A stretch of DNA of 64,000 nt from assembly GCA_963668625.2 (NCBI GenBank), contig CAXXKA010000006.1, positions 448,001 through 512,000 of the forward strand. Direction: 5' to 3'. Shown piece by piece: positions 6,852-45,902 of the stretch. Below the pieces are notes generated by a model that saw only the letters and a list, made by a program, of their open reading frames with translations, did no database searches and was not told the DNA's origin. The position numbers were made by a program, and so were the translations under genes. The stretch's first letter is position 1. Each line of letters opens with the position of its first letter. This DNA comes from an uncultured candidate division Zixibacteria bacterium (GTDB lineage: Bacteria; Zixibacteria; MSB-5A5; UBA10806; 4484-95).

Positions 6852-6893
6852 ATATATTCCAGAAACGAATAAAACTTAACATTGGAGGATCGG

Positions 6894-8537
6894 ATGAAAA
6901 GGGTAATCTTTTTCATAGGTGTATTGGTGTTGATCGCAATTCTAATTGCCTGCAGTAGTTCCAAGGATCACAGAAAAGGCGGGGTTATTGATTCGCCTAA
7001 AAAACGCGGTGAAATTTCTTATGTAGGTGATGAAAAAGCTGCTTCAAATTTGTCGGGTCCGGCTTCTCCGTCGCCTTACGCAGCCCACCGTTGTGAAATG
7101 GATTATCCGTATCACAATACTGAGCAGTACGACTTCAAATCCGAAAACACGTTCAAGGATGTTATCGAAAATCCGCTGTCAACGTTTTCCATCGATGTTG
7201 ATGCGGCCTCGTACAGCAATGTCAGACGATTTATCAATAGCGGTTCTTTACCGCCCGAAGATGCCGTGCGTATCGAGGAGATGATAAATTATTTCAGCTA
7301 CGACTATCTCCAGCCCGCTAACGATCAACCGTTTTCGGTAAACACGGAGATATCCTCCTGTCCATGGAACAGCGGTCATCGCCTCGTGCATATCGGCCTG
7401 AAAGGTCAGGATATCGAACTGGAGAATATGCCTGCCAGTAATCTCGTGTTTCTGCTTGATGTCTCGGGGTCGATGAACATGCAGAATAAACTGCCGCTTC
7501 TAAAAGCCTCGTTCCGGTTACTTGTCGATCAGCTTCGCCCCGAGGACAGAGTGGCTATAGCCGTTTATGCCGGTTCGGCCGGACTGGTTTTGAAATCCAC
7601 TCCGGGGGATCAGAAAGAGAGGATTTTAAACGCGATAGAGAGACTTCAAGCGGGAGGCAGCACCGCCGGTGGAGCGGGAATCATACTGGCTTATAACGAG
7701 GCGCAGAATAATTTCATCAAGGGAGGCAACAACCGGGTGATACTGGCTACCGATGGTGATTTCAATGTCGGCGTCTCCAGTGATGGCGAACTTGTCAGAA
7801 TGATTGAGGAGAAACGCGAGAAAGGCGTGTTCCTGACCGTGCTTGGTTTCGGTACCGGTAATATTAAAGATTCCAAGATGGAGAAACTGGCTGACAGGGG
7901 CAACGGCAATTACTCTTATATCGATAATATCCAGGAGGCTCGTAAAGTGTTAGTCAGCGAGATTGGCGGTACGCTGTTCACAATTGCCAAGGATGTTAAA
8001 ATACAGGTAGAATTCAATCCCGCCCGGGTACAATCGTACAGACTGGTCGGCTATGAGAACCGCCTTTTGAATCGCGAGGATTTCGAGGATGACACCAAGG
8101 ATGCCGGCGAGATTGGCGCCGGACATACAGTGACTGCTCTGTATGAGATAGTACCTCGGGACATAGATAAAGTACTAAATGATGATGACGGTTTAAAATA
8201 CCAGAATGTCAATATCGATTCCGAGGCGCTTGGAAGCCCGGAGTTGATGACATTGAAACTTCGATACAAACAACCTGACGGTGACAAGAGTAAATTAATC
8301 ACCAGCCCTATCATCGATAACGGTCGCGCGTTAAGTAAAACCTCGGATAATTTCAGGTTCTCCTCGGCCGTGGCACAATTCGGGATGTTGTTGCGCGATT
8401 CCAAGTTCAAAAGCGATGCCACATTCAGTAACACATTGAAACTGGCTAAAAGTAGCAAAGGTAATGATCCGATGGGCTACAGGGCGGAGTTCATTCGCCT
8501 GGTAGAATCATGTATATTGCTTGCGGATAGTAATTAG
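6894..8537 (+). CDS. YfbK-like VWA-domain lipoprotein (vWF_A, VWA, DUF3520-type C-terminus)
   Basis: Lipobox LIAC, STFSIDVDAASYSNVRR, MIDAS LLDVSGSM, ATDGDFNVG, TIAKDVKIQVEFNP. GGAGG precedes the ATG at 6894. Confidence 0.9.
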   Translation: MKRVIFFIGVLVLIAILIACSSSKDHRKGGVIDSPKKRGEISYVGDEKAASNLSGPASPSPYAAHRCEMDYPYHNTEQYDFKSENTFKDVIENPLSTFSIDVDAASYSNVRRFINSGSLPPEDAVRIEEMINYFSYDYLQPANDQPFSVNTEISSCPWNSGHRLVHIGLKGQDIELENMPASNLVFLLDVSGSMNMQNKLPLLKASFRLLVDQLRPEDRVAIAVYAGSAGLVLKSTPGDQKERILNAIERLQAGGSTAGGAGIILAYNEAQNNFIKGGNNRVILATDGDFNVGVSSDGELVRMIEEKREKGVFLTVLGFGTGNIKDSKMEKLADRGNGNYSYIDNIQEARKVLVSEIGGTLFTIAKDVKIQVEFNPARVQSYRLVGYENRLLNREDFEDDTKDAGEIGAGHTVTALYEIVPRDIDKVLNDDDGLKYQNVNIDSEALGSPELMTLKLRYKQPDGDKSKLITSPIIDNGRALSKTSDNFRFSSAVAQFGMLLRDSKFKSDATFSNTLKLAKSSKGNDPMGYRAEFIRLVESCILLADSN

Positions 8538-8739: not shown

Positions 8740-9441
8740 TTAGTCAATAAACTCAAGAGTATTGATTTCCATCGAGTTACTCATAGAAGTGAAACTCCAG
8801 ACATCGCTTTCATACTCGAAGTCATCACCATACCAGGCAACTACTTTCCAGTAGTAAGTAGTGTTCCCCTCGAAGCCAAAAGATATATCATTGACCGTGT
8901 GTGAAAGCGTGCCGCTCTCATCGATTGTCCAGGTATCGATAGAAGCATCGTTATCGACATTAGCGGTTGCCGTGCATGTAAACGAGTTAGCGTCGCTGGT
9001 TATCGCGTAGGAGTAAACATCATTAGCATCGACAGTCAAATCGAGGCTCGTCGAGAAAGAATTAGGTTCACCAGCGGAGGCGATATCTCCGTTGCCGGTA
9101 TAAGTGGCGTTTTGAGTGTGGTAATCGACCTGGGCATCGTAAACATCATTAAGGAAATTCTGGGCAATATCACATCGCTGCCAGGCGGAGATTAATTCGG
9201 TTTCGGTCAGGTTGGCATATTCTAAAGATGGATTATTCGTTGTACCGAAATAAAAATCATACTTGATGGAATCGGAGGGCATACCCTGTACATTCCATTC
9301 GAAAGTAATACCACGACCTAAATCAGTAACGCCGTCAGCCGGGGAAGGATCAGTGATTGATGGTCCGACTGGAGCGGTAGAGTTCTCGGAACAACCGATA
9401 AACAACAACATGGCCAATAGTAATACGATTGTGAATTTCAT
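8740..9441 (-). CDS. Lipoprotein: Fn3-like domain with an inserted type IV pilin-like head domain
   Basis: Lipobox FIGC. Fn3-like halves PSPADG...YDFYFGT and NTTYYWKVVA...SDVWSFT surround about 100 aa (AQNFLNDVYDAQVDY...FTCTATANVDNDASIDTWTID). Confidence 0.7.
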   Translation of the reverse strand: MKFTIVLLLAMLLFIGCSENSTAPVGPSITDPSPADGVTDLGRGITFEWNVQGMPSDSIKYDFYFGTTNNPSLEYANLTETELISAWQRCDIAQNFLNDVYDAQVDYHTQNATYTGNGDIASAGEPNSFSTSLDLTVDANDVYSYAITSDANSFTCTATANVDNDASIDTWTIDESGTLSHTVNDISFGFEGNTTYYWKVVAWYGDDFEYESDVWSFTSMSNSMEINTLEFID

Positions 9442-9856
9442 CCTTGTCTCCTTTTGTTGTATTTTATAATATTTCTTTAAAGGTTATCGTCAGTCTGAGT
9501 TGCGGGTTTAATAGCGCTGTAACTTGATGAAATACAAAACATTAATAGGGTGAAACTGAAATCCGATATTTTCATTCGTAAATAAAGTTAGTTGTTTTAT
9601 TTTTCGTTTCGATGCCTCGGCGATCGTAGAATACTTTCCCAACCATAGCCTTTATGAGGGGAGAAGTAACCTGTCATTATGGCTGATAACAATTTACGGA
9701 CTATCATAAAAGATATCTCTACTGGATAGAGTTACTTTTAGACTTTTGTAGAGGCGTTATAGCGGCTGGATAAGTGTTAGAGCCGGGAAATTCTCATTCT
9801 TAGAGACAACGCATTTTATGCCTTTACTCTATCGAATCGCTGTAAAAAGTTGAAAC

Positions 9857-9883
9857 AAAAAGGCCGGGGTGGTTATCCCGGCC
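9857..9883 (-). terminator. Intrinsic terminator of the 417-aa lipoprotein gene
   Basis: GGCCGGG...CCCGGCC stem with AAAAA on the left (U-tract on the minus strand). Confidence 0.65.
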
Positions 9884-9907
9884 GTGCAATTTGCATCATT
9901 GAGCGTT

Positions 9908-11161
9908 TCACTCGGTGGTAAAACTCCAAACATCACTGGTCAGCGATTGATTATTGCCGTACCTGGCCACGATTTTCCAGTAGTACGTAGTATTCGATTG
10001 ATATGCCACCGGCTCATCATCGACAGTATGGGTTATAGTACCGGTTTCATCAATTGACCAGGTGTCAACAATGGCATCAATATAATCGAGATTCGCTGTC
10101 GCTGAGCAAGTATAGACGTTTTCACTTGCGACAATCGTGTATGAGTATATATCAAGCGGGTATAATATTATGTGATATTCTGAAATCATATTCCCGGGAT
10201 TAGAGTTCGAAAAGGTTACTCCATTGCCAAAATAAGTATCATTTACTGAATGATAATATTCCTGACGATCATGAAGTTCAAGTAGTGTTTGCTGTGTTAT
10301 TTCTTGAAGTTTCCACGGTGTAGCGCAAATCGTATTATCGTAATTTCTAATCGTCCTGGAGGGATCACTGGTAGTATCGAAATAGACATCGAAGCTTACG
10401 AGACTGGTAGCCAATCCATCGAATTCCCATTGGAAAACGAAATCATCCGTTACACCTGTGGCGTTATTTGCCGGGGATACCAGTGTCAATACCTGATCGC
10501 TGGGCTGTACGCTAAAATGCCAGGTGTCGCTAACGAGTGAATCGTTATCTCCGCTTCTGGCAACTACTTTCCAATAGTAAGTGCCGCCCGGTTCGAATGG
10601 ATTGTCTATATCTTCAATAGTGTGTACCAGGTAATTGTTCTCATCTATTTTCCAGGTGTCGATAGTATCATCATTATCCAAATTAGCGGTTGCGGTGCAG
10701 GTAAAATGGTCGGCATCGTTTTGCATGCGATATGAATACACGTCAAGGGAATCCATCACTAAGTTTAAATATTGTTCCCAATAATCAGGAATGCCGGGGT
10801 GTACGATTTCACCATTATAAATGTAAGTGTCTTCCTGATCTCTATACACTTGCTCCGCGTCATGGATTTCCTGCAGGAACTCCGCTGCGATTGCCTGTCT
10901 TTGCCAGATTGTAAGTAGCTCGCTTTGATCTAAATCGGTTGATACCAATGGTGGATTTGTGTTCGTGCCAAGATAAAAATCATAACGAGTACCGGCGGGA
11001 AGATCATCGGCTTCCCAATCAAATACAAAATTTAAACTTGTTATAGTAGCGCCATCGGCCGGGGCCGGGTTTGAAAATGCCGTGTCAGTCGGCTCTGTCC
11101 CATTATCATCACATCCTATAAACAGCAGAATGCTTAGTAGTAATACGATCTTGAACTTCAT
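9908..11161 (-). CDS. Lipoprotein with two tandem Fn3/pilin-like modules; paralog of 8740-9441
   Basis: Lipobox FIGC. Two repeats of PA..G/A.T...YDxYxxT...[QxxY...TY..NG...YSY...TCxATANLD..DTWxIDE..HT]...TYYWKxVAR...SDxWxF. Confidence 0.7.
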   Translation of the reverse strand: MKFKIVLLLSILLFIGCDDNGTEPTDTAFSNPAPADGATITSLNFVFDWEADDLPAGTRYDFYLGTNTNPPLVSTDLDQSELLTIWQRQAIAAEFLQEIHDAEQVYRDQEDTYIYNGEIVHPGIPDYWEQYLNLVMDSLDVYSYRMQNDADHFTCTATANLDNDDTIDTWKIDENNYLVHTIEDIDNPFEPGGTYYWKVVARSGDNDSLVSDTWHFSVQPSDQVLTLVSPANNATGVTDDFVFQWEFDGLATSLVSFDVYFDTTSDPSRTIRNYDNTICATPWKLQEITQQTLLELHDRQEYYHSVNDTYFGNGVTFSNSNPGNMISEYHIILYPLDIYSYTIVASENVYTCSATANLDYIDAIVDTWSIDETGTITHTVDDEPVAYQSNTTYYWKIVARYGNNQSLTSDVWSFTTE

Positions 11162-11355: not shown

Positions 11356-12264
11356 ATGAAAATTAAAGTTAAAATGATAGCATCCGTGATTGTTGTTATG
11401 TTGCTATTGGGGGCGGTGCAGGCTCTTGCTGATGAGATAGTCAGGGAGTTTGATCCTAAAGCGAGAGTGATTATCGAAACTGTCTCCGGCGATGTCGAGA
11501 TCCGAAAGGGGGGATCGGATAAGATAAAGGTCGTTGTCGATGCGAATGTTCGCCCCCGGGATTCTTTCGAACCTATATTCAGGGATCGCGGCAGATCTCT
11601 GAGATTAGAAGAGCGTATATACGAATCTAACAGCGGCAGAATTACCTGGACTTTAACCGTACCTAACGGCACCGAAATCAAATTCAACTCCGCCTCAGGA
11701 AATATGACCATCGAGGATATCGAGGGCGAATTCTCGGGAAGTACAGCCTCGGGTGACTATAATATTTACAGCTGCAAAGGCATTTTCGATCTCAATACCG
11801 CCTCCGGTGATTACACTCTCGAAGATTGTTCCGGTGAGTTCGATATCAACTCCGCCTCGGGTGATTTCTCCATTCGGCATATCAAGATAGATGAGAGGAG
11901 TAAGATAAATACCGCTTCCGGAGATATTACGGGTCGCGATGTTTTGGTCAATGGATACTGTGATTTCGGTTCGGCCTCCGGCGATGTCAAGATAGTACTT
12001 GGCGAAAGCCCCAAGGATGATATCAAAGTAGGTTCGGCCTCCGGTGACGCCAGCCTGGATTATAACGGCAACAAGATGGTCGGGTTTTTCGAGGTGTCCG
12101 CCAAAAGACGTAACGGCCATATACGTTCCGACCTCGATTTCGATAACGAGGAAGAGTATCGTAAAAACGGCCAGTGGTATGTTCGTAAAACAGTGAAATT
12201 GAATGATAATGAGCCGCTAATAACGGTTGGAACGGCCAGTGGACGGGCGGAACTCAAGAAATAA
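11356..12264 (+). CDS. DUF4097-family beta-strand repeat protein, secreted
   Basis: Signal peptide, many (N/G)(T/S)ASGD repeats, AGGAGG RBS. Confidence 0.85.
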   Translation: MKIKVKMIASVIVVMLLLGAVQALADEIVREFDPKARVIIETVSGDVEIRKGGSDKIKVVVDANVRPRDSFEPIFRDRGRSLRLEERIYESNSGRITWTLTVPNGTEIKFNSASGNMTIEDIEGEFSGSTASGDYNIYSCKGIFDLNTASGDYTLEDCSGEFDINSASGDFSIRHIKIDERSKINTASGDITGRDVLVNGYCDFGSASGDVKIVLGESPKDDIKVGSASGDASLDYNGNKMVGFFEVSAKRRNGHIRSDLDFDNEEEYRKNGQWYVRKTVKLNDNEPLITVGTASGRAELKK

Positions 12265-13116: not shown

Positions 13117-13365
13117 TTGGAATCTATAGCATAAGTTAGAGTTTATATCAATTATTAAATTAATAGAAATGTATGTGTAAAAACCGGGTTTCACGAGTAC
13201 ACTCAGCAAAACTCATTATAGTCTCTTGAAAGACTATTTTCTGATTCAATAGTATTAAAATATCCTGAAATTGGCTATTAAAGGATTATTAGCTATAGCC
13301 GAACTTTTAAATAGTAGGATTCAAAATGTAAATCAATTTTAATGTTAGAATTTAAAGGAGAAATT

Positions 13366-14655
13366 ATGTTTAGTATCTCAAAGAAAGCAGCATTGTTAAT
13401 CATCCCATTAACCCTTTGTTTATTTTTCGCGTGTAGTGATGATGATTCGACTTCATCGGGTACCGGAGATCTTGCGGGCAAGTATGTTGGTGTAATTATT
13501 GAAAGCGGTTACGATACTCCCGGTGAAATGGACGCCACGGATTTTGGTTTTGTCGGCGAGACTTTCGCTGTTGAAGTAACAGACAATCTCATGCTTGTTG
13601 TCAATGAGAATAGCGTTTACAATGATGAGGTGAGTCTTCAGCTGACGGAGGCTACGGAAGATACTTATACCGGGGCTTTCATTGATAATGAGGTTGATTA
13701 CACGCTTACACATAATTTTACTATTACCTATAATGAGGATTTAGCGAAGTGGCAGGCTGGTGTTGAGCTTGTGCTGGATTCGGGCAGTGATGGTGATACG
13801 GATGATACAGGTTTAATCAATATCGTTTTAGAGCAGAGGCTTGACTGGAGTGAATACCCGACAGAATGGGCGGTTGCAAACTCCTATACCGATGGTAATA
13901 CCGGTTTCGTTGAACTGGAGGTTATGACCGCTGCTTTAGGAGCCGAGGGTATTATACATGGTCTGGTTTTTTATAATGACGGAGATTCGATTAGAGCGCG
14001 GCAATATATAAGCGATAGTCCCGAAGTTCTTACTATTGTCATTCAGGAAATGAACGATGACTATATCCGTTTCTCAGCAATTGATCAGGAACTACCATCA
14101 ACTACAATTACACCTGATCCTGAGGATTGGAATACAGATGCCGGTTTATCGGATGTTCATTTAATTCCGACGACTCGCATGGCCGGTTTCGTTGCGGATG
14201 AGGATACGATTACAGTTGAATCGCAAGCAGACTACGATACGGATGGCCAGGATGGCGGCAGCACATATTCATACTTCGGCGCTAATATAACCGGTGTAGA
14301 AGTTACTTATACTATCAATAATGATGGCACGATGGATACTGAGATGGGTGGCGATCCCGAAACCAGAGATTTAGGATACATGGAGTTCTCCGGGATAGGT
14401 TACCTGGTTTCCCCGCGCATTGATACATCAGGGAATGATCTGGATGTAAGCTACCTGGTTATGGAACTGGATGCATCAGGTAATGCAACCGGTGATGGTC
14501 TTATTCAGGGGTATGATATTCCCGATACTGACCTCGATGGTGAGCTTGATGATGACGAGGCTGAGAATATCGATAATGAGGGAGTTGCGGTTTTCGGTGA
14601 TGGCCTCGATCCCGATTTATTTGATTTCATAACAACAACAATACCTACATTGTAG
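13366..14655 (+). CDS. Very acidic hypothetical lipoprotein
   Basis: Lipobox FFAC, Asp/Glu/Thr-rich, AAGGAG RBS before the ATG at 13366, terminator downstream. Confidence 0.75.
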   Translation: MFSISKKAALLIIPLTLCLFFACSDDDSTSSGTGDLAGKYVGVIIESGYDTPGEMDATDFGFVGETFAVEVTDNLMLVVNENSVYNDEVSLQLTEATEDTYTGAFIDNEVDYTLTHNFTITYNEDLAKWQAGVELVLDSGSDGDTDDTGLINIVLEQRLDWSEYPTEWAVANSYTDGNTGFVELEVMTAALGAEGIIHGLVFYNDGDSIRARQYISDSPEVLTIVIQEMNDDYIRFSAIDQELPSTTITPDPEDWNTDAGLSDVHLIPTTRMAGFVADEDTITVESQADYDTDGQDGGSTYSYFGANITGVEVTYTINNDGTMDTEMGGDPETRDLGYMEFSGIGYLVSPRIDTSGNDLDVSYLVMELDASGNATGDGLIQGYDIPDTDLDGELDDDEAENIDNEGVAVFGDGLDPDLFDFITTTIPTL

Positions 14656-33794: not shown

Positions 33795-35762
33795 ATGGCT
33801 AAAGTGATAGGAATTGATCTGGGCACCACCAACTCGTGCGTGGCTGTAATGGAGGCCGGTGAGCCTACCGTTATCACCAACTCGGATGGCTCCCGGACAA
33901 CGCCCTCGGTGGTGGCATTCACCAAAACCGGCGAGCGGCTGGTCGGGCAAACCGCCAAACGCCAGGCGATTACCAACCCCGAAAATACGATATTCTCGAT
34001 TAAACGTTTCATGGGCAGACGGTACAAAGAGGTCGGCTCAGAGGAGAAGATCGTGCCGTATAAAGTCAAGGCCGCCCCCAATGATGATGTCAGGGTAGAG
34101 GCGCAGGGCAAGGATTACGCCCCGCCGGAGATATCGGCCATGACCCTGCAATATCTCAAGAAAGCTGCCGAGGATTACCTGGGCGAGAAAATCACCCAGG
34201 CCGTGATTACGGTGCCTGCCTATTTCAACGACTCACAACGCCAGGCTACAAAGGATGCCGGAGAGATCGCCGGGCTCGAGGTGCTGCGTATTATCAACGA
34301 GCCGACTGCGGCCTCTTTAGCCTATGGACTCGATAAAAAGAAAGATCAGAAAATAGTAGTCTACGATTTAGGCGGCGGTACTTTCGATGTCTCCATACTG
34401 GAGCTGGGCGAGGGTGTGTTCGAGGTGCGCTCGACCAACGGTGATACGCATCTGGGCGGCGATGATTTCGATCAGCGTATCATGGATTACCTCGCGGATG
34501 AGTTCAAGAAAGAGCAGGGGATTGACCTTCGCCAGGATAGAATGGCCCTTCAGAGACTGAAAGAAGCGGCCGAGAAAGCCAAGTGCGAGCTTTCCTCCAC
34601 CATGCAGACCAATATCAACCTGCCGTTTATCACAGCCGATCAATCCGGCCCCAAGCATCTGGATATTACCCTGTCGCGCGCCAAGCTCGAACAGCTTTGC
34701 GATGACCTGATCCAGCGTACCCTGGAACCATGCCGTCAAGCGCTACGTGACGCCAAGCTGACCGCCGGCGATATACAGGAGATCGTGCTGGTCGGTGGTA
34801 TGACTCGTATGCCGAAAGTGCAGGAGGTCGTAAAAGAGGTATTCGGTCGCGAACCGCATCGCGGTGTCAATCCCGATGAGGTCGTGGCTATCGGCGCGGC
34901 TATCCAGGCGGGCGTACTGGCCGGGGATGTCAAAGACGTGCTTCTTCTGGATGTCACCCCGCTGTCGCTGGGAATCGAGACACTGGGCGGCGTGGCAACC
35001 AAGCTGATAGATCGTAATACCACCATCCCGACCAAGAAGACGCAGATATTTTCGACTGCAGCGGATAATCAACCGGCGGTGTCTATCAACGTGCTGCAGG
35101 GCGAGCGCGAGATGGCTATCGATAACCGTACGCTGGGTCGGTTCGACCTGGTTGGTCTTCCACCGGCGCCGCGCGGTATCCCGCAAATCGAGGTTACATT
35201 CGATATCGATGCCAATGGTATATTGCATGTCTCGGCCAAGGATTTAGGCACCGGCAAGGAGCAGTCGATCCGTATCGAGTCGTCCTCCGGTTTGTCCGAT
35301 GATGAGGTCGAGAAGATGAAGAAGGACGCCGAGGTTCACGCCGATGAGGATAAAAAGCGCAAGGAGCTGATCGAGGCCAAGAACAAGGCAGACAGCACTC
35401 TTTACGCTACCGAGAAATCCTTAAAAGATCATGGCGATAAAATCTCCGATGACGAAAAAGCCAAGGTCGAAAAGGCGATCGAGAATCTCAAAGAGGCGAT
35501 GAAGACCGAAGATGTCGAGCGTATCAACAAGGCCTCCGAGGAGGTGCTGACAGCCTCGCACAAGCTGGCCGAGGAGATATACAAGCAGGCGCAACAACAA
35601 CAGCAGGGTGAAGGCGGCGAGCAAGCCGGACCGCAACCGGGAGCCGAGCAAGCTTCCGGGGCCGATCAGTCACAACAGCAAGCGGGTTCATCCGAGGAGA
35701 AGAAGGATGACGGCGCGGTTGATGCCGACTACGAGGTTGTTGACGAGGATGATAAGAAATAA
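33795..35762 (+). CDS. dnaK: Chaperone DnaK (Hsp70)
   Basis: [38 protein letters not shown]. Terminator at about 35790-35817. Confidence 0.99.
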
Positions 35763-35842
35763 ACTATTTTAGATAGATATGAGAGATTGAAAGGGTGTCC
35801 GGTTGGATGCCCTTTTTAAATATGGTTGATTTTTCAAGCGGC

Positions 35843-35865
35843 GATACGAAGCGCTGTTTCGTATC
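35843..35865. repeat. Single REP-like hairpin of the AAGCGCTGCTT family
   Basis: GATACGAAGC-GCT-GTTTCGTATC. The tail TTCGTATCAAGGT recurs at about 36694. Confidence 0.55.
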
Positions 35866-35956
35866 AAGGTTTTGGCTACTGTGCAAATAGTAAAGGGAGT
35901 ATGCGATATATTCATATGCTCGTTTTTGTGCTAATTAATAATCGCAAATCAAATTA

Positions 35957-36553
35957 TTAAAACATATCTCCGGTCTGTTTCCCTGGGATTTGACTTTCCT
36001 TCTCGAATGCTTGTATCTCGTTGAAACATTGATTGGTGCAATCTTTCAAAACTTTCTGATATAACTGTTCGATATAATCTTTCGAGGCGTGCCATGAGGT
36101 TACCTCATACCAGGCCTCGCCCTTGTAGGAATACATGCATGGCTCATGTACTCCATCGTAGAAATTAAACCTCATCGCTACTTTCACGTATTCCGACTCT
36201 CCCCAGAATTTACAGTCGTACTTCATCTTGCCCTCGAGCAGCGTAACCACGATATCAACCTCGGTGCCCGTTCTTGTCGCCAGCTTATAAATCTCACCTC
36301 TAATCGTGTTTTTGTCATACTCGGTGAACTCGGGATATACTTGATCATCATGCCAGGGAAACGCCAATGATGGAATCTTGATCTCCCTATAAGTGATCTC
36401 CGGCCTCTTATCAACAAACGAGATGCTATTAACGATCAGATTCGCGGGTGTTCCCCTGACAGCGTATTCCTTCTCAAGATAGGCCAGTTTTGATGATGAT
36501 CCGCAGCTTACTAAAAGCACCAATAATGATAGCATAGTGATTGTTTTTTTCAT
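35957..36553 (-). CDS. Hypothetical lipoprotein
   Basis: MKKTITMLSLLVLLVSC lipobox, 198 aa. Confidence 0.7.
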   Translation of the reverse strand: MKKTITMLSLLVLLVSCGSSSKLAYLEKEYAVRGTPANLIVNSISFVDKRPEITYREIKIPSLAFPWHDDQVYPEFTEYDKNTIRGEIYKLATRTGTEVDIVVTLLEGKMKYDCKFWGESEYVKVAMRFNFYDGVHEPCMYSYKGEAWYEVTSWHASKDYIEQLYQKVLKDCTNQCFNEIQAFEKESQIPGKQTGDMF

Positions 36554-36778
36554 CTGTTTGCCCTTCATTTTATTGAGATATTGACCATAACATTATTCCC
36601 CGAGTAGCTTAATCTTGGAACAATATATTGATCTTGTTCTGAAAAAGCTATATTAAATTCGTTTGTAAAATATTTCATGCAAAGATGCAGCGATTCGTAT
36701 CAAGGTGCTGGCGGTTTAGCGATTTAAAAAGGGCGTCCAATCGAACGCCCCTACATGAGAAATCTATTTCAATGCAAA

Positions 36779-38131
36779 CTACAGGATATACCTGCTCAAA
36801 TCTTCATCCTCGATAATCGCTTTGAGTGTTTGCTCTACCATCTTTTTAGTGATACGCACCTTTTTCGATTTTACTTTCGGCGCCTCATACATCAGGTCTT
36901 CCAGCAGGGTAGTCATCACCGTATGTAACCTTCTCGCGCCGATATTTTCGGTGCTATTGTTTACCTCGGCGGCCACCCTGGCTATCTCCTGAATGGCGGC
37001 TTTGTCGAACTTGATATCGACACCCTCGGTCGCCAACATCTCGATATATTGCTTTATCAAAGCGTTTTCGGGCTCGGTAAGTATGCGCACGAAATCATTC
37101 TCGGTCAGCGTATCGAGTTCGACCCGAATGGGGAACCGTCCCTGCAACTCCGGGATTAGATCGGAGGGTTTGGACATATGGAAAGCCCCGGCGGCAATGA
37201 AAAGCACATGATCGGTTCTGACCATGCCGTACTTGGTCATGATATTCGATCCCTCGACTATCGGCAGTATATCGCGCTGCACGCCTTCGCGAGAGACATC
37301 GGGGCCGGACTTGGCATCCTTGCCGGCGATCTTGTCTATCTCATCGATGAAAATCAATCCCGAATTCTCGACTCGCTCCAAAGCGATATTTATTACCTCA
37401 TCGAAATCGATCAGTTTTTGCGATTCGTCCTGGGTGAGGATTTTGTAAGCCTCGAGTACGGTTACTTTGCGTTTCTTGGTCTTCTGAGGCATCATACCGG
37501 AGAACATCTCCTGTATGTTCATGCCTATCTCCTCGATACCCATAGGGGAGAAGACCTCCACGACCGGGAAACGATCACTGGGAACATCCAGTTCTATGAA
37601 ACGTTTATCGAGCTTGCCCTGCCGGAGTTGTTTGCGCATTTTTTCGCGAGTGGCCAGGGCTTTCTTGGCATGTTCCTCATCCTCTTTAGCGCTCTTCTTG
37701 TTCTTGCCGGCGCTCGAGGGCAAGAGTAAATCCAGGAGTTTTTCCTCGGCCAGCATCTCGGCCTTGGCCTCAACCTCTACCTGTTTTTCTTTTTTTACCA
37801 TGTTCACAGCCAGGTCGCACAGATCGCGCACCATCGACTCGACATCCCGGCCGACATAGCCGACCTCGGTATATTTCGAGGCCTCGACCTTCACGAACGG
37901 GGCGTTGGAAAGATTTGCCAGGCGGCGGGAAATCTCGGTTTTACCGACACCGGTAGGGCCGATCATGATAATGTTGTTCGGCATTATCTCATCTTTTAAC
38001 GGCCCGGTTACCTGCTGACGGCGCCAGCGGTTGCGCATGGCAATCGCCACCATTTTCTTGGCTTTATCCTGACCGATTATATATTTGTCCAGTTCGTTTA
38101 CTATTTCCTGAGGTGTTAATTCGTCTAACAT
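36779..38131 (-). CDS. hslU: ATP-dependent protease ATPase subunit HslU
   Basis: [40 protein letters not shown]. Confidence 0.98.
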
Positions 38132-38138
38132 ATTTACC

Positions 38139-38666
38139 TTACTTGAGTGTTTCCAATACAATGTTACCGTTGGTATAGATACAAATCTCAGAGGCTATCC
38201 GCAACGACTTTTCGACTATTTTGTCGGGAGTTAGCTTGGTGTTTTGTACCAGCGCCCGGGCCGCCGAAAGGGCGTAAGTCCCGCCCGAACCGATTGCCAG
38301 AATTCCGTCATCCGGTTCTAATACATCACCGTTACCCGTTATCAGGAAACCCTGTGATTTATCCATGATAACAAGTAACGCTTCCAGGCGCCTGAGATAT
38401 TTATCGGTTCGCCATTCTTTGGCCAACTCTACGGCCGCGCGTTGGAGGTTACCTCCGTACTCGTCCAGCCTCGATTCGAATTTCTCGAATAGCGTTAACG
38501 CATCTGCGGTAGCTCCGGCGAAACCTGCCAGTACCGTATCGTTATACATTCTGCGAATTTTTACCGCTGTCGATTTGATCACGGTATCATCCAATGATAC
38601 CTGGCCATCCGCGCCCATTGCCGCGCCATTTTTGGTTATCACGCCTATTACTGTCGTGCCTTTCAT
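38139..38666 (-). CDS. hslV: ATP-dependent protease subunit HslV
   Basis: N-terminal [22 protein letters not shown]. Confidence 0.97.
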
Positions 38667-39577
38667 TCAGCCTCCGCCCGGGGATGTGCTTTCTTGTAAA
38701 CCGAAATTAATCGCCCGGTAGTAATGTGGCTGTATTTCTGTGTGGTTTTCAACGAGGCGTGTCCAAGCATCTGTTGAACCGCCCTGAGATTAGCGCCCGC
38801 TGTCAGTAGATGAGTGGTGAAAGAGTGGCGAAGACTATGAGTTGAAAGACCGGTCTTCTCCGAACATCTCTGGAGATGCGCTTTCACGATTCTAGCGGCG
38901 CTGCGCGGGGTCAGTTGTCCGCCCCGGGTATTCAGAAATACAGCGTTTTGATTTGTTTTATTCTTCTCTATCAGTAAATCTTTTCTGTGTACTAGATATT
39001 TCTCGATCGATTCGATGACCATATCGCCAACCGGCACCAGGCGGTATTTTCCTCCCTTGCCGAATACCTTGATTTCGTTTTTATCGAAAATCAAATCTTC
39101 GAGATCAAGCCCGGTCAATTCCGAAAGTCTCAAACCGCAACCGTAGTAAACCTCGATCATAGCCCGGTCGCGTATGTCTTTGAACGAATCATCCCCCCAG
39201 CCGGTTTCAATAAGAAATTTGGCCTCCTCTTCGGAGATATATTTAGCCCGGTAAGGTTCGACTTTAATCGGCTCTATAAGCCGGGCGGGATTATGGCCGA
39301 CACGTTTGATGCCTGCGAGGAAATCGAAAAGCATTTTCAGCGCCTCCAGTTTGCGGGCGATGGAACTGCTTTTTAAGCCGCTTTTCCTGAGATTTATTAA
39401 ATATCGGCGAATCTCGAATTGGGTTAGATCCGTCTTGCTATCACATTCGTTTTTGATATATTTTATGAAATGTTCGATATCGGCGCCATAGGCTATACCG
39501 GTGTTTTCGGCGTAATTGCCGCTCTTTAAATGCTTTAGAAAGAGGATATAAGATTCATCCCAGAAATTAGTTTCCAT
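38663..39577 (-). CDS. xerC: Tyrosine recombinase XerC
   Basis: GLRLSEL, GKGGK, HSLRHSF, LGH, TTQKY. xerC-hslVU synteny. Confidence 0.88.
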   Translation of the reverse strand: METNFWDESYILFLKHLKSGNYAENTGIAYGADIEHFIKYIKNECDSKTDLTQFEIRRYLINLRKSGLKSSSIARKLEALKMLFDFLAGIKRVGHNPARLIEPIKVEPYRAKYISEEEAKFLIETGWGDDSFKDIRDRAMIEVYYGCGLRLSELTGLDLEDLIFDKNEIKVFGKGGKYRLVPVGDMVIESIEKYLVHRKDLLIEKNKTNQNAVFLNTRGGQLTPRSAARIVKAHLQRCSEKTGLSTHSLRHSFTTHLLTAGANLRAVQQMLGHASLKTTQKYSHITTGRLISVYKKAHPRAEAE

Positions 39578-39771
39578 AGGGGATGTATATACGAATTAGC
39601 GGTTTTTTATGCAAGGGATAAGTTACTTTGATTGTGTTTAGGGTATGTTGACTTATTGCCAGTCGCTTCACTATATCCAATAACCACGAATGGGATATCC
39701 GCCCGCCTTCGGTTGAATATCCATAATAATAGAAAAGCGGGGCATGTATTATCATACCCCGCTTCGTATTC

Positions 39772-42030
39772 TTATTCCGGCAAAGGCGGTTTGCTTTCGA
39801 TCATTGATGAATTTAACAGATCTCCGGGAGGCGGTAATGCAGGACAGAAAAGTAATCCCGGTGTCAGGCCGCGGAAATAGTTTACCAGGTAGGTAACATC
39901 CGCGCCGATTAAAGCACAGTCCCCGTTAACATCCCCGGCAACATAAAGCCATCTCGATTCCGCATCCAGATAACAGGAGTCGACAGGCACTAGTCCTCCC
40001 CGGAAATAATTCACCAAGAAAGTGACATCACTGCCGATTACGGCATCATCCCCGTTAACATCACCGGGTTTATATACGCAATCAATCCCGACAAAATCAG
40101 CTATCAATGAATAATTTTGAGGGCCATATGGAATAGCGGTACCGTTAACGCGGATAGTCCACAATCCCTCCTCGGGCAAACTCACTATTACCTGTTCCAT
40201 GTTATTCAGATTGTCGATCCCGGTAGTCGCCGTATTGCCTGGATTGTCGGGGTCGAGAATAAACGGGTAGTAAGTCACGGCCGAGGGGCTAACCAGTTCC
40301 AGATCGATATTATTTACCAGTTTTATACTGGCGCCTGTCGAGGCTTCTTTGTCATCCCAGGCAATCGTAACTTTTATTCTCGGCTCACCGGCGCCAACCT
40401 CCACATAGTATTCATCTAGCGCGGAAGTTGAGATATCATCTTGAACGATTTTCAAACCATACCCGGCGTCGGCGATGATCAAATCGACTGCATCCTGGAC
40501 ATTGATTCTGCCATAGCCGTACAGGTAATCCGGTCCGTAATGACCCAAGTCCTCCGACGTATGATAAAATATCGCGCGAATAGTCGAGGGGAGAGGATCG
40601 GTACCGTTCAAGTTGTTGTACTCCTCGTACATCAAGATAGCGCTGCCCGAGGTGGCGGGGGAGGAGAACGACGTTCCGCAATAATTATCATCATAGCAAT
40701 TATCGGTGTAGGTAGTTTTAACTCCCGCGAAAGACTTGCATCCCGGCGCCGCTATATCCGGCTTAATGCGACCGTCCTGGGTGGGGCCACGGCTCGAGCT
40801 CGACCACCAACCATCGTTATTGGCATGTGTAGCCGAGACCGACAGGGCATTTTTGGAGGTTGCCACCGGGCCCGATACCGTGCCATAGGGATAGTCGGGC
40901 AACTCTCCCGAGCAGGTCGTACATTCGCCGTCATTGCCGGCCGAACCGATCACGGTAATCGGATACGTGTAGTATCCCCTGATAATTATATCGTATAATC
41001 TCGAATAAGTATCGTATTCGCCGAAACCATCGCAATAGCCGGCCTGACAGTTGTTATAACCCCAGGCGTGTTGGGAGACATCCGCGCCATAAGTATTAAT
41101 CGCGCTGTCATGCTCGCCGGTGTGGCTGTTCCAGTTATACGATACCACGTTGACATCGTTAGCGATTCCCCGGTAGTAGCCCTCGATCGTGCCGCATTCA
41201 TTGCCCCGGGAACCATCCCCGGCCATTATGCCGCAAACCAGAGTGGCGTGGTAGTGGGTACTGGAGCCATCCCCCGAGGTCAGTCTGCTGGAGTAGTCGC
41301 CATGAGCGTAAGCTACACCGGCATCCCACATAGCGGCGGTATAGCCAGTACCATGAAGGTTATACGGAGCTGCCTGAACCTCATCGGCGTTAATCTTATA
41401 ACGAACGTAATTGAGATGAGTGGTTTTTTCGCGCTCGGCATTCTCTATCCATTGAACCAAATCCTCATCGACGAAAGCGTCGAAATCAGCTTGATCGATT
41501 ACGATTTCCCAGGTATCGGCCAGAAGCATTTCACCGGCGCCATACTTCGAGAGCAAAGCCTCTACCTGTTCTTTGTTTACGTCCCGATGAAAGACAACGG
41601 TAAAAGCCACCCGTGTATCATCGAGCAGGCTTCTTTCGGCAAAACCATGTTGCTGTATTTGAGGGGTTATTTTAAGGGCGGGTTTGATTTTATCTATATA
41701 ACGAATTCCGTCGGGAAGAAGATTTGGTATGGCATCGAGATAAGCGTACCAGGCATTATGAGGCAGGTAGCTTAAAAGATGAATGCCGTTTGCCGCCAAT
41801 GATTGTTTCTCGGCAGTGGATGGTATATGATCGAACTGTATGAGTACGTGCCGGTTCAGATTTTCGGATAACTTACCGACTATTTCCTGCGATACCTGTA
41901 TCTCAGGGGTAAACTGGCCGGATAACAGTTTAATCTCATTATTGCTATCGTTCGCTTGAATTCCAGCACAGTAAAGCATGAAAATTACTAATACGAAAAA
42001 AGGAAGCTCGATTAATGACTTATTTTTCAT
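39772..42030 (-). CDS. S8 (subtilisin-like) serine peptidase with C-terminal dockerin
   Basis: WDAG, HATLVCG, GTSFSSP triad, SSRGPTQDGRIKPDI, YGYGRIN, two GDVNGD repeats. Confidence 0.9.
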   Translation of the reverse strand: MKNKSLIELPFFVLVIFMLYCAGIQANDSNNEIKLLSGQFTPEIQVSQEIVGKLSENLNRHVLIQFDHIPSTAEKQSLAANGIHLLSYLPHNAWYAYLDAIPNLLPDGIRYIDKIKPALKITPQIQQHGFAERSLLDDTRVAFTVVFHRDVNKEQVEALLSKYGAGEMLLADTWEIVIDQADFDAFVDEDLVQWIENAEREKTTHLNYVRYKINADEVQAAPYNLHGTGYTAAMWDAGVAYAHGDYSSRLTSGDGSSTHYHATLVCGIMAGDGSRGNECGTIEGYYRGIANDVNVVSYNWNSHTGEHDSAINTYGADVSQHAWGYNNCQAGYCDGFGEYDTYSRLYDIIIRGYYTYPITVIGSAGNDGECTTCSGELPDYPYGTVSGPVATSKNALSVSATHANNDGWWSSSSRGPTQDGRIKPDIAAPGCKSFAGVKTTYTDNCYDDNYCGTSFSSPATSGSAILMYEEYNNLNGTDPLPSTIRAIFYHTSEDLGHYGPDYLYGYGRINVQDAVDLIIADAGYGLKIVQDDISTSALDEYYVEVGAGEPRIKVTIAWDDKEASTGASIKLVNNIDLELVSPSAVTYYPFILDPDNPGNTATTGIDNLNNMEQVIVSLPEEGLWTIRVNGTAIPYGPQNYSLIADFVGIDCVYKPGDVNGDDAVIGSDVTFLVNYFRGGLVPVDSCYLDAESRWLYVAGDVNGDCALIGADVTYLVNYFRGLTPGLLFCPALPPPGDLLNSSMIESKPPLPE

Positions 42031-42383
42031 GACTCCCGTTCCTTCCGAGTATTACTTCAACTCTATATTGCCAAACTTTTATTTTCTAAACAGCTAAATA
42101 AGTAAACCAAAACCGCGCGTTCTATGTTTGATAAATTACAAAACTATACGATCAAATAAAAATCAAAACTCCCGATCGAGCGGTCAAGTAGTATCAACGT
42201 TAGCTTAAATAAAGTATATAGATATTTTATGTCAAGAAGAATTAATTTTGAGCATGGGTCTATAAGAAACGCTCAGGCCGATTCTTGCTGAATCGAAACA
42301 GAATTATATCGGGTTTTATATGCTCTCTATCGTTCGCTCCGAAATCCTAACCTACAGTGTTTAAAACAGAATGCTGCTAAAAC

Positions 42384-42578
42384 CACTACTGTCCGGACTT
42401 TCCTTCTCGTTGCGAAGCTTGATTGTTTATTTCGCTCCGCCCGTAATGATTGACCTTATACGATTTTTCAACAATCCCCGCGCTTGGAAACCAGGGGGAC
42501 TAAGCCTTTCATCACCAGGATGTGCCCGGATGAAAGCGAAGCGACATCCTGATACGCTGAAAACACCGGGCAATAGTG
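42384..42578 (-). mobile_element. Diverged 195-bp variant of the MITE with both ends
   Basis: CACTACTGTCCGG...AAAACACCGGGCAATAGTG, internal GCGCTTGGAAACCAG and TGATACGCTGA match the full element. No clear TSD. Confidence 0.75.
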
Positions 42579-42665
42579 ATAAAATGTCATTAAACATATG
42601 AATAAAAAAACCGGCGAATGAATCATCCACCGGCTGTAATTTGCAATTATCGAATACCTTATAGC

Positions 42666-44885
42666 TTAGCTTTTCACCTTTGCGGGCTCTTCCTCAACCA
42701 CACGATGTTTACACAGGGGGCAGTAGAGATGGTCGCCTTTGGCCTGGGTGCTTTTTTCAACCATGTAAGCGTTGCCACAACTGGGACATTGCTTGTTGAC
42801 CGGTTTCGACCAGAGCGAGAATTTGCAATCGGGATAGCGCGAGCAGGAAAAGAATATTTTACCTTTGCGGGATGAACGCTCGAGTATCTCGCCATCACAA
42901 CCATCCTCAGGGCATTTAACTCCGGTGGGTATACTCTGCGTGGTTTTGCAATCGGGATATTTGGAACAGGCCATGAACCTGCCGAACCTGCCGTGACGAA
43001 TCTCCATCGGGGAGCCGCAGTTGGGGCATTTTTTGTCGGTTTTCTCGATCTCGTTACCCAGCGGTTTGGTGTTTTTGCAATCGGGATAAGCGCTGCAAGC
43101 CAGGAATCGGCCGTTACGCCCGAATTTTATCACCATTGCCGAGCCGCATTTATCGCAAACCTCGTCGGTTTCCTCGATAGTTTGTTTTTTGATATTCTTG
43201 GTGTTGGCCTCGACCCGTTTCAAGTCATCACTGAAAGGATTGTAAAATTCCTTGAGCACTTTTACCCAATCCTCGCTGCCCTCCTCGATACGGTCGAGTT
43301 CCTCCTCCATCTCGGCGGTGAAATCGGTGTTGAAAATATCCTCGAAATTTTCAACGAGTATTTTCGTTACCATTTTACCCAGGTCGGTGGGTTTGAAACG
43401 CCTCTGATCCAACTCGACATATTTGCGAGCGGTCAGGGTAGTGACGATCTGAGCGTATGTTGACGGTCTTCCGATCCCTTTTTCCTCGAGTTCCTTAACC
43501 AGGCTGCCGGAGTTGAAACGGGGGGGAGGTTGCGTGAAATGCTGTTCGGGTTTTATCTCCGAAAGCTTCACTTTGTCGCCGTCCTTGAGTTCGGGTATTT
43601 TCTTTTTCTTGGAATCGTCATCGATGCCGTTTTTATAGGCTTTCAGCCAACCCTCGAAAACCAGTTCCTGCTCGGAAGCCCTGAAAGTATACTTGCCTCC
43701 GAGAAACTCGGCGGTTTTAGTCGCGTATTGCGCATCCGCCATCTGTGAGGCCATGAATCTCGACCAGATCAGGCTATACAGACGGTTCTGGTCGCGGGTA
43801 AGGTATTTTTTGACTGCGGCCGGATCTTTATAAGAGGAGGTCGGCCTGATCGCCTCGTGAGCATCCTGCGCTGATTTTTTGGTTTTATAGAAACGGGGTT
43901 TTTCGGGATTAAAATCCTTGCCGAAAGTTTCAGCGATATATTTAGCGGCTTCATCCTGGGCTATCTTGGCGATACGAACCGAATCGGTACGCATATATGT
44001 GATAAGACCGATCTGGCCCTCGCCGCCGATTTCCACACCCTCGTAAAGTTGCTGGGCGATTGTCATCGTTTTCTTGTTATTGAAACCCAGTTTACCATAA
44101 GCATCTTGCTGAAGCGTGCTGGTTATGAAAGGCGGCGGAGGTTGACGTTTTAAGCTGCCTTTCTTAAACGAGGAAACCTCGTATTTTTGCTCTTTGATAT
44201 CTTTGCATATTTCATCGGAAAGGTTCTGGTTATCTATCTCTGGCTTTTTGCCTTCTATTTTAACCAGACGAGACGGGATTTTGGTAGATTTACCGGCTAT
44301 GAATTCAGCATCGATTGTCCAGTATTCCTGGGCAACGAATTTGTCGATTTCATCCTCTCGCTCGCAAATAAGACGAAGAGCGACCGACTGAACGCGACCG
44401 GCAGATAATCCATAGGTGATAGTTTTCCACAGCAGGGGAGAGACCTTGTAACCAACCAGCCTGTCCAGTATTCGTCGTGCCTGCTGTGCGTTTACCAGAT
44501 TGCTATCTATCTCTCCGGCGTTTTTAATACCATCGAGAACCGCTTGCTTGGTAATCTCATTGAAAGTGACACGATAGACATTAGCTTTGGTTTTGCCCAA
44601 ATTATTAGCGATATGATAAGCAATCGCCTCGCCCTCTCGGTCTGGATCGGGAGCTAAGTATATATCACTGGCTTTCTTTCCCAGTTTCTTTATTTCGGTT
44701 AAGATCTTTCCCTTACCCTTGATTGTCACGAACTGCGGCTCGAAATCCTTATCGATATCCACGCCGAGTTTCGATTTAGGGAGATCGATGATGTGCCCGT
44801 TCGTTGAGGCAAGCTGATAGCTTTTTCCGAGAAATTTCTGCAATGTCTTAGTCTTTGTCGGCGACTCGACTATCAGTAATTTCAC
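42666..44885 (-). CDS. topA: DNA topoisomerase I with C-terminal zinc ribbons
   Basis: IVESPTK, DPDREGE, SAGRVQS, ITYMRTDS, GIGRPSTY, C4 repeats. Confidence 0.98.
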   Translation of the reverse strand: MKLLIVESPTKTKTLQKFLGKSYQLASTNGHIIDLPKSKLGVDIDKDFEPQFVTIKGKGKILTEIKKLGKKASDIYLAPDPDREGEAIAYHIANNLGKTKANVYRVTFNEITKQAVLDGIKNAGEIDSNLVNAQQARRILDRLVGYKVSPLLWKTITYGLSAGRVQSVALRLICEREDEIDKFVAQEYWTIDAEFIAGKSTKIPSRLVKIEGKKPEIDNQNLSDEICKDIKEQKYEVSSFKKGSLKRQPPPPFITSTLQQDAYGKLGFNNKKTMTIAQQLYEGVEIGGEGQIGLITYMRTDSVRIAKIAQDEAAKYIAETFGKDFNPEKPRFYKTKKSAQDAHEAIRPTSSYKDPAAVKKYLTRDQNRLYSLIWSRFMASQMADAQYATKTAEFLGGKYTFRASEQELVFEGWLKAYKNGIDDDSKKKKIPELKDGDKVKLSEIKPEQHFTQPPPRFNSGSLVKELEEKGIGRPSTYAQIVTTLTARKYVELDQRRFKPTDLGKMVTKILVENFEDIFNTDFTAEMEEELDRIEEGSEDWVKVLKEFYNPFSDDLKRVEANTKNIKKQTIEETDEVCDKCGSAMVIKFGRNGRFLACSAYPDCKNTKPLGNEIEKTDKKCPNCGSPMEIRHGRFGRFMACSKYPDCKTTQSIPTGVKCPEDGCDGEILERSSRKGKIFFSCSRYPDCKFSLWSKPVNKQCPSCGNAYMVEKSTQAKGDHLYCPLCKHRVVEEEPAKVKS

Positions 44886-44906
44886 GATGTCCTTTCCGTT
44901 CTGATG

Positions 44907-45164
44907 TTATAATTCCGGGAAGAGTTCCTCTTCTGAAGACGTATCTTCCTTAATAGTGAATTTAACTTTACCCTCGGCTAAGGCCGTGATAGCCTCGACT
45001 GTTACCTTGGTTTTGAAAGATGGCGGAATTTCCTCAGGGCCAACACTTTCAGTAACAGATAACCGCTCCAAATTAATCTTTCTGGAAAGCTTGGAGGCTA
45101 CTATAACAGCCTCGTACTTGTTGCTGGTGTATTTAGCCACTTTCTTCTTGATATCGTAATCCAT
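44907..45164 (-). CDS. rpoZ: RNA polymerase omega subunit
   Basis: NKYEAVIVASKLSR...KVTVEAI; directly follows gmk. Confidence 0.8.
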   Translation of the reverse strand: MDYDIKKKVAKYTSNKYEAVIVASKLSRKINLERLSVTESVGPEEIPPSFKTKVTVEAITALAEGKVKFTIKEDTSSEEELFPEL

Positions 45165-45196
45165 CTGCCTCCCAACATTGAAATCTATCGGCGTAT

Positions 45197-45835: not shown

Positions 45836-45902
45836 GTGATGTTAATTTTGATTGCTACTTTTAGTTTTTATCACTACTTCGTTATTACTACATTAAATTC
45901 TA

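Follow-up and report, generated by a model that had tools for sequence, protein, structure and literature searches.

What is the head of a type IV pilin doing inside a lipoprotein? The question is raised by positions 8,740 to 11,161 of a 64,000-nucleotide stretch of DNA from an uncultured Zixibacteria bacterium (contig CAXXKA010000006.1 of assembly GCA_963668625.2), which we refer to as a whole as the window. To our knowledge, the head of a type IV pilin has hardly been met with except on the outside of a filament subunit, coupled to a class III signal peptide and an N-terminal membrane helix. The sole long frames in this interval of the open reading frame (ORF) list encode two proteins, P0001 and P0002. 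An earlier note on this DNA had described two adjacent lipoprotein genes holding three copies of one module, and we found the ORFs where it had placed them, lipoboxes in both and modules that can be aligned from end to end. Both proteins begin with a signal peptide, MKF.IVLLL..LLFIGC, whose end resembles a lipobox; its Cys is followed by S in P0001 and by D in P0002. The mature part of P0001 carries one copy of the module of ≈195 amino acids (aa) and that of P0002 carries two; identities over the full length are 46% (88/193), 41% (80/194) and 36% (70/193). We conclude, with a probability of about 0.95, that each module is a fibronectin type III (Fn3) domain split by a diverged pilin head from which the prepilin leader and the N-terminal membrane helix (alpha1-N) are absent.

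To characterize the insert, we built a hidden Markov model (HMM) of 105 positions from 28 genuine prepilins of this genome, its relatives and a protein search, all cut after AIPRF. The set consisted of ORFs with G[FY][TS]..., AIPRF-type and D.W.I-type motifs, and minor pilins of other families were excluded by design. The three inserts aligned to this prepilin-only profile from positions 8/12 to 103/104 with E-values of 1e-27 to 6e-21, a resemblance that by this measure is far beyond chance. The proposal that the insert resembles the part of a pilin behind the transmembrane segment was thus correct, and its stated extent, residues 87 to 185 of P0001, needs adjustment at one end only, the start lying nearer residue 84 (≈84–185). 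A search of 5.8 billion proteins yielded three PF07963 N-methyl prepilins of 141–142 aa that are 44–48% identical to the P0001 insert. Pfam returned only sub-threshold ComP_DUS matches for the inserts (E 5e-4 and 0.012), phmmer with P0001 against PDB sequences gave 0 matches at E ≤ 10, and the ESM Atlas gave no usable match. Chance similarity, mis-assembly or a non-coding ORF can practically be discounted as the source of this pattern: we found nothing in favor of such an artefact, and it would have to account for E-values of 1e-21 to 1e-27, for homologues that are built alike and come from other genomes and metagenomes, and for the confident structural models of both proteins described below.

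The sequences on either side of the insert were traced to a single domain. A homologue search of 1.84 billion representatives gave 1011 matches at E ≤ 0.001, and most of the best 150 of these 1011 were long multi-repeat proteins that matched only P0001 residues ≈21–82 and ≈186–222. From 117 fetched proteins without a pilin head, 115 of which contributed, we collected 605 uninterrupted repeats of 89–105 aa and built an Fn3-repeat HMM of 100 positions. It matched every module in two pieces, at positions ≈5–61 and ≈63–98; the model positions are accounted for on either side of the insert, and no part of the domain is lost. The break at 61/63 in all three modules confirms that an Fn3-like motif is split by the insert. 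Where the N-terminal match of the second P0002 module ran on into the insert, we set its end at residue 280 by the start of the modeled helix at 282. The insert comes after strand E, immediately ahead of a conserved Leu and of strand F (TTYYWKV). Among relatives whose repeats are uninterrupted, P0049 and P0039 pass PF00041 fn3 (61–62 bits; cut-off 25) and PF25788 Ig_Rha78A_N. The split halves remain under the Pfam gathering score (P0002, 19.4 bits on PF25788 with a cut-off of 27.4; P0001, no match), as expected of a domain that is split, and NCBIfam gave nothing meaningful for either protein. What sets the modules apart from the Fn3 and Ig_Rha78A_N repeats of large multi-repeat proteins is that the loop behind strand E holds a folded domain of ≈100 aa. 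Repeats of this Fn3 subfamily without an insert are present in long proteins that combine many repeats with beta-propellers, and some of these are lipoproteins (P0039, P0049); judged by their domains, the long proteins are probably located at the cell surface.

AlphaFold2 (AF2) gave a model of P0001 from a 19-row alignment with a predicted local distance difference test score (pLDDT) of 87.2 and a predicted template modeling score (pTM) of 0.76. In this model, strands at residues 28–84 are followed by a helix (86–111), a four-stranded sheet (144–182) and further strands (195–219). The same order of elements appears twice in the model of P0002 (14-row alignment; pLDDT 82.3, pTM 0.70). Foldseek assigned the P0001 model a probability of 1.00 for 5v23, 4d40 and 6xxd. 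No match of the whole P0001 model reached E ≤ 0.001; the top rows were tandem-Fn3 receptors with root-mean-square deviations >20, and pilins ranked lower. We attribute these weak E-values to the two-domain model, which confuses the search. Two kinds of match were obtained in a structural search of 48,161 chains, and those to pilins cover model residues 84–186. The insert is predicted to adopt a pilin fold and the flanks to rejoin, in the model, into one seven-stranded Fn3 beta-sandwich. Either an insert without pilin similarity or pilin fold, or flanks that do not rejoin, would have spoken against the earlier note; the HMMs, the AF2 models and the structural matches gave neither.

Are P0001 and P0002 then pilins? 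A class III signal peptide is described as a short hydrophilic leader that ends in Gly or Ala and is cleaved by prepilin peptidase (PMC8179133). Such a leader is absent from both proteins, as are the cleavage site between G and F, Glu5 and the hydrophobic alpha1-N. PF07963 (N_methyl) had no match in either protein at E ≤ 10 and no leader or alpha1-N is visible in the sequences, just as the note had said. The residues before the insert helix are an Fn3 strand and not alpha1-N, the match starts where the membrane helix of pilins stops, and in the alignments the inserts begin exactly at the boundary between alpha1-N and alpha1-C of real pilins. What they share with bona fide pilins is homology and the globular head, in which alpha1-C packs against an antiparallel beta-sheet. 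P0001 and P0002 fail the signal peptide and alpha1-N tests and are therefore not pilins, and their insert, judged by homology and by its predicted fold, is a true pilin head. Because alpha1-N is absent, canonical polymerization into a filament is expected to be impossible. For the same reason we rejected a pilus cap or a minor pilin; the cap, one of the roles suggested earlier, is unlikely.

The natural insert begins at the same place as laboratory-truncated soluble pilins such as 4noa (the minor pilin PilE of Pseudomonas aeruginosa), model residues 84/88 onward aligning with residues 27/31 onward of the truncated chain. This coincidence with constructs that lack alpha1-N shows that the head can fold alone. 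In constructs of the 4noa type the truncation is artificial; here the genome itself encodes it, it is conserved, and the truncated head lies within a host domain. Among natural pilins, alpha1-C and the head of the short type IVa (T4a) major pilins of the Myxococcus xanthus PilA and Thermus thermophilus PilA4 kind are homologous to the inserts, and HMMER aligned residues 152–171 of M. xanthus PilA with the C-terminal F-x-C/A-x-A-x-x-N-x-D-x-D/E-x-x-x-D-x-W-x-I motif. P0001 and P0002 depart from these pilins by their lipoprotein signal, by the nesting of the head in another domain and by inserts that lack the pilin-invariant positions of alpha1-C.

The genome (4.3 Mb, 10 contigs) has pilins of its own. 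Two tandem prepilins of 142 aa (GFTLIELMIVVVIIGILAA...) are encoded on another contig than the window (G000 contig C1, 430603–431823; 679–1107 and 1501–1929 in locus L001), with a PilR-like sigma-54 response regulator on one side and, on the other, a peptidase of the PilD type (PF06750, PF01478), and score 41.6 and 38.5 bits on PF07963. We ran the comparison of the insert with the prepilin-containing proteins of the same genome that had been called for: the inserts are 36–48% identical to the two pilin heads, the P0001 insert reaching 48% with the second pilin, and 36–47% identical among themselves. A six-frame scan of the whole genome with the head HMM found exactly five heads, the two prepilins and the three inserts. 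A 777-aa ORF (G000:C6:674326–674571) was considered as pilin-like on the basis of a tblastn match (E 0.1) and dropped, as the head HMM did not recover it at E ≤ 1. Comparison of an own pilin head (residues 38–142) with longer proteins gave 0 of 771 candidates at E ≤ 1e-5, a result weakened by the word-based pre-filter. A complex prediction for P0001 (27–228) and the own pilin head (38–142), run without controls, gave no support (scores 0.00 and 0.00), which counts neither for nor against an interaction.

The pilins of 141–144 aa of this class occur as tandem pairs or triplets (in this genome and in loci L014–L026). Their heads are unusually conserved for pilins, with near-identical motifs in metagenome-assembled genomes (MAGs) titled Ignavibacteria and Calditrichaeota, and their acidic loop, D-x-D-x-x-x-D-x-W, is invariant.

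How the inserts relate to the pilins was examined in a quick maximum-likelihood tree of heads covering ≥80 HMM positions (49 inserts and 28 pilins). The pilins formed a tight cluster with short branches and the inserts lay on long branches; those of the window grouped with P0003, P0004 and P0011, away from the pilins of their own genome. Recent capture from an own-genome pilin was rejected, since the inserts are not nested with these pilins. In a second tree, made without the two P0095 heads and without P0021_500 with its long branch (46 inserts, 28 pilins), a single branch separated inserts from pilins (Shimodaira–Hasegawa-like approximate likelihood ratio test 88.6, not starred). An old single capture is possibly the origin, being compatible with this tree but not shown by it. 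By the alignments and trees, the T4a major-pilin family of the lineage has a diverged paralogue in the nested domain.

For the conservation and identity sets P0095_163 and P0021_500 were left out. Mean pairwise identity was 58.8% between pilins, 36.0% between inserts and 39.1% between inserts and pilins, and two inserts may share as little as 18%. Inserts and pilins alike conserve the core aromatics Y26, Y33 and Y61, besides G37, A76 and the loop D81-x-D83-x-x-x-D87-x-W89. Only the pilins conserve K8, S10, E11, K17 and M22 of alpha1-C, together with D82 and L97. We infer that the constraints that filament packing places on alpha1-C have been lost, while the fold and a loop that probably binds metal have been kept. 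The loop, N-x-D-x-D-x-x-x-D-x-W, is the only strongly conserved feature outside the core that inserts and pilins have in common, and its 1,3,5,(7),9 spacing of acidic residues looks like a Ca2+ site of the EF-hand type, which makes it a candidate only. Ca2+-stabilized loops occur in the pilin superfamily and its partners, as in the type II secretion pseudopilin GspG and the nine-residue site of P. aeruginosa PilY1. The acidic loop near the C-terminus of the head resembles them at the level of the motif only. Ca2+ bound there would make the head rigid, a task that usually falls to the disulfide-bonded D-region.

How widespread is the architecture? In a sample of 155 proteins on hand, 38 matched the prepilin-head HMM, 3 of them real prepilins and 35 without a prepilin motif; 34 of the proteins examined have a head nested in Fn3. 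The 35 non-prepilin proteins contain 54 heads, flanked by Fn3 halves on both sides (42 heads, in 30 proteins), on one side (10; fragments or weak halves) or on neither (2, both in P0095). Members may have one module, two modules or, as in P0011, P0026, P0021 and P0022, a module preceded by plain Fn3 repeats. A lipobox Cys was seen by eye in all 28 Fn3-nested members with a complete N-terminus, and a crude regular expression found it in 26 of the 35 family proteins. In public databases the members are called "hypothetical protein" and once, in a metagenome annotation of P0160 (235 aa), "Tfp pilus assembly protein PilE"; the name indicates that an automatic pipeline caught the pilin similarity and missed both the absent leader and the Fn3 host. 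P0095, a 371-aa protein from outside the window, has a zinc-ribbon-like N-terminus, one transmembrane segment and two tandem heads without Fn3 flanks (HMM E 1.6e-7 and 4.9e-35), the second of which stands beside real pilins in the tree. These features make it a further case in which this pilin head is used without a leader.

The survey of related genomes suggested earlier was also made. Among 41 genomes up to class level, 35 matched at E ≤ 1e-10; the whole module was spanned in 5, and the other 30 matched the insert part only (residues ≈92–186), that is, tandem pilins. Within the phylum (Zixibacteria-like), 5 of 285 genomes, which belong to two families of a single order, matched at E ≤ 1e-24; up to 10 candidates were scored per genome, so diverged copies may be missed. 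A scan of 185,579 species genomes confirmed at least 41 loci out of 592 stretches with the pattern. Among the matches listed, only L021, in a Candidatus Zixiibacteriota MAG, holds the composite module besides the own genome; L022–L026 are plain pilins, and the remaining loci, with matches to the flank part only or 23–28% identity, were taken for Fn3 repeats. Tandem pairs of paralogues recur, of 267 and 324 aa in L011 and of 535 and 449 aa in L013.

The head might have no specific binding role and serve only as a bulky spacer or stabilizer in a surface-layer or matrix lipoprotein: the domain is dispensable in most relatives, and we saw no conserved surface patch beyond the core of the fold and the acidic loop. 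We consider this very unlikely. In 30 proteins, 42 heads with Fn3 halves on both sides have remained intact and share one insertion point, with identities down to 18%, and persistence under such divergence argues for selection on the head itself.

On these grounds the following scheme can be proposed. The proteins would be exported by Sec, processed by Lgt and LspA and anchored by a lipid on the N-terminal Cys, with no processing by PilD. In standard Fn3 topology the EF loop and the N-terminus are at opposite poles. Since the N-terminus is the lipid-anchored end, insertion into the EF loop would place the head at the membrane-distal end, with the sandwich replacing alpha1-N as a short stalk. 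The pilin head would have been co-opted as a scaffold with a diversified surface that anchors the cell body to polysaccharide, matrix or substratum, ligand anchoring taking the place of filament formation. We tentatively favor such a binding or adhesion module of the cell envelope, probably of its outer surface, and put its probability at roughly 0.45. The reasons are the surface diversified among paralogues, the surface-type relatives of the Fn3 subfamily, and the M. xanthus PilA domain: in the account of PMC12691611, the soluble C-terminal domain of this pilin binds exopolysaccharide/GlcN.

Several observations weigh against this proposal. The membrane-distal position of the head is taken from textbook Fn3 topology and not from model coordinates. 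The candidate Ca2+ site is a matter of motif spacing alone, and the M. xanthus PilA paper (PMC12691611) names calcium only in its reference list. The neighboring genes are functionally uninformative and are not kept in related loci. The residues behind the lipid-bearing Cys, considered below, are ambiguous. Finally, a pilin fold retained in a lineage with unusually conserved pilin heads might just as well mean that the nested domain interacts with the pilus system.

This last point leads to a reading in which the heads are true mimics that engage pili or the pilus machine through the head contacts made within or between filaments. They might bind type IV pili of the same or of neighboring cells head to head, as in bundling, and act as landing pads for retraction-driven cohesion between cells or for kin recognition. 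The nested domain is indeed homologous to the major-pilin family of its own genome and provides the only other heads of that family there; the genome has a full set of type IV pilus motor ATPases and secretins (6 T2SSE ATPases, 2 secretins), and a recognition code would suit the diverged paralogues, of which a genome has several and often in tandem (window, L011, L013). But the inserts do not co-vary with their own pilins: the pilins of the class are highly conserved, and the inserts, at 36–48% identity, sit on long branches. Both this failure to track the own pilins and the loss of the pilin-invariant alpha1-C positions weakly disfavor a faithful imitation of the pilus surface. Nor is the module linked to type IV pilus genes; no pil genes lie next to the composite genes at the window locus or at the related loci compared. 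Its rarity in the phylum (5 of 285 genomes at E ≤ 1e-24, and pilin-type matches only in 30 of the 41 genomes up to class level) indicates that the pilus does not need it as a general partner. We regard mimicry as unlikely, yet worth keeping in mind.

The location of the head depends on how the lipoproteins are sorted. The lipid-bearing Cys is followed by SENS in P0001 and by DDNG in P0002, and D or E stands at +2 or +3 in 24 of the 28 complete members by eye, usually as one acidic residue. In Escherichia coli, Asp at +2 retains a lipoprotein in the inner membrane, and by this rule the C-DD of P0002 would mean inner-membrane retention. The proteins might accordingly be periplasmic modulators of the pilus machine, anchored in the inner membrane or in the inner leaflet of the outer membrane, that show the head to PilNOP, the secretin, PilD or proteases and in this way compete with the pilin pool, chaperone it or sense it. 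Besides the Asp at +2/+3, the cut at the boundary of alpha1-N and alpha1-C would suit this role, as it yields just the periplasmic part of a membrane-embedded pilin. Such a modulator is nonetheless distinctly unlikely: the inserts have not kept the alpha1-C face that pilins conserve, the module is rare among relatives that bear type IV pili, linkage to pil genes is lacking, and Fn3 repeats of the same subfamily are found in the beta-propeller multi-repeat proteins that we read as cell-surface proteins. NCBI places this phylum in the FCB (Fibrobacteres–Chlorobi–Bacteroidetes) group. A surface-export signal given for Bacteroidetes lipoproteins is K-(D/E)2 or Q-A-(D/E)2 (PMC5080379); our proteins do not exactly match this consensus, which comes from another phylum.

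With a pilin fold and no possibility of a retractable filament, the heads could also act as decoys, on the cell surface or on shed vesicles, that titrate phages specific for pili or other pilus binders, and rapidly evolving paralogues would fit an arms race. We find this highly improbable. The surfaces are strongly unlike those of real pilins (36–48% identity), and a decoy fixed to the cell body would draw phage toward the envelope. The real heads are conserved (58.8% mean identity), which does not suggest strong phage selection on the pilus surface, and there are no phage or defence genes among the neighboring genes. Thus, of the interpretation offered in the earlier note, the structural and evolutionary part stands, and the functions it listed (decoy, cap, chaperone and kin-recognition adhesin) have found no direct support.

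The coordinates of the genes and domains are collected in the table. P0001 and P0002 are paralogous lipoprotein genes. The ATG of P0001 is preceded by an AGGAG-like Shine–Dalgarno sequence. The spacer between the genes (9442–9907, 466 bp) is non-coding, unusually long and devoid of ORFs of ≥60 aa; a search of the whole window, this spacer included, against Rfam gave 0 matches. A terminator-like hairpin lies inside it, ≈25 nucleotides past the P0002 stop codon. Given the length of the spacer and the hairpin with its T run, the two genes look like separate transcription units.

Table. Features of the composite lipoprotein locus (window coordinates; E-values from the prepilin-head and Fn3-repeat HMMs)
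Feature	Position	Strand	Basis
P0001 gene, 233-aa lipoprotein, one composite module	8740..9441	-	ORF list and translation; stop codon included
P0001 signal peptide with lipobox, residues 1–17 (...LLFIGC)	9391..9441	-	Sequence and crude lipobox scan
P0001 Fn3 N-terminal part, residues 29–83, strands A to E	9193..9357	-	HMM 7–61, E 1.1e-11
P0001 nested pilin head, residues 84–185, alpha1-C (86–111) and four-stranded sheet	8887..9192	-	Prepilin-head HMM, E 1.2e-27
P0001 Fn3 C-terminal part, residues 186–221, strands F and G	8779..8886	-	HMM 63–98, E 1.2e-9
Terminator-like GC hairpin, then T run	9862..9883	-	Consensus match only: 7 pairs, all G-C, then TTTTTGTTT
P0002 gene, 417-aa lipoprotein, two composite modules	9908..11161	-	ORF list and translation; stop codon included
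P0002 module 1, Fn3 N-terminal part, residues 27–81	10919..11083	-	HMM 5–60, E 1.1e-10
P0002 module 1, nested pilin head, residues 82–184	10610..10918	-	HMM E 1.6e-22 (88–185); helix 85–110, strands 143–182
P0002 module 1, Fn3 C-terminal part, residues 185–220	10502..10609	-	HMM 63–98, E 2.3e-8
P0002 module 2, Fn3 N-terminal part, residues 224–280	10322..10492	-	HMM 6–70 (residues 224–288), E 1e-8; strands 225–280
P0002 module 2, nested pilin head, residues 281–383	10013..10321	-	HMM E 5.8e-21 (289–382); helix 282–307, strands 340–380
P0002 module 2, Fn3 C-terminal part, residues 384–417	9911..10012	-	HMM 64–97, E 2.4e-10

The neighboring genes encode EF-G, an RluA-like protein, a YfbK/VWA protein, a DUF4097 protein and a HIT protein; as they are not conserved, we rejected an assignment of function from the gene neighborhood. 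The two flanking genes both encode envelope proteins, on one side a YfbK-type VWA lipoprotein with vWF_A, VWA and YfbK_C domains (6882–8537, +) and on the other a DUF4097 "toastrack" protein with a signal peptide (11356–12264, +). Neither adjoins the composite genes in other genomes. Elsewhere in the window, a 437-aa ORF (13342–14655, +) encodes an extremely acidic protein with a signal peptide and a lipobox-like Cys (...LFFAC followed by SDDD), for which no Pfam family was found at E ≤ 0.001. Local GC content rises to 0.53 at 34001–36000, together with a strong positive AT skew (+0.13), and the following ≈10 kb (36001–46000) have a strongly negative AT skew, down to -0.18; the switch at 34001–46000 is probably due to long genes on opposite strands.

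An Fn3-nested pilin head on a lipoprotein is a new domain architecture made of known parts. The claim that no system of this kind had been described agrees with the literature, in which we found none in titles or abstract openings, supplements and subscription-only papers being outside our reach. As described in PMC8179133, in modular pilins such as PilB of Streptococcus sanguinis an extra module has been joined to a complete pilin, class III signal peptide included, and the filament presents it. The present proteins resemble them in that a pilin module and another module have been tinkered together for surface presentation, but the logic is inverted: here the pilin head is the guest, in an Fn3 loop, and is presented by a lipid anchor. 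A leaderless pilin head in an Fn3 loop is in this sense the mirror image of a modular pilin.

The pilin head is thereby shown to be an autonomous and portable domain, in a family of at least 34 proteins that has been kept for a long time. For structural and binding studies of an uncultured phylum it is a soluble-head scaffold supplied by nature. Should the heads prove to bind pili or the pilus machine, they would represent a new coupling of the cell body to type IV pili; as true mimics they might form a programmable landing pad for retraction or an assembly brake, and the tandem paralogues would then be a recognition code.

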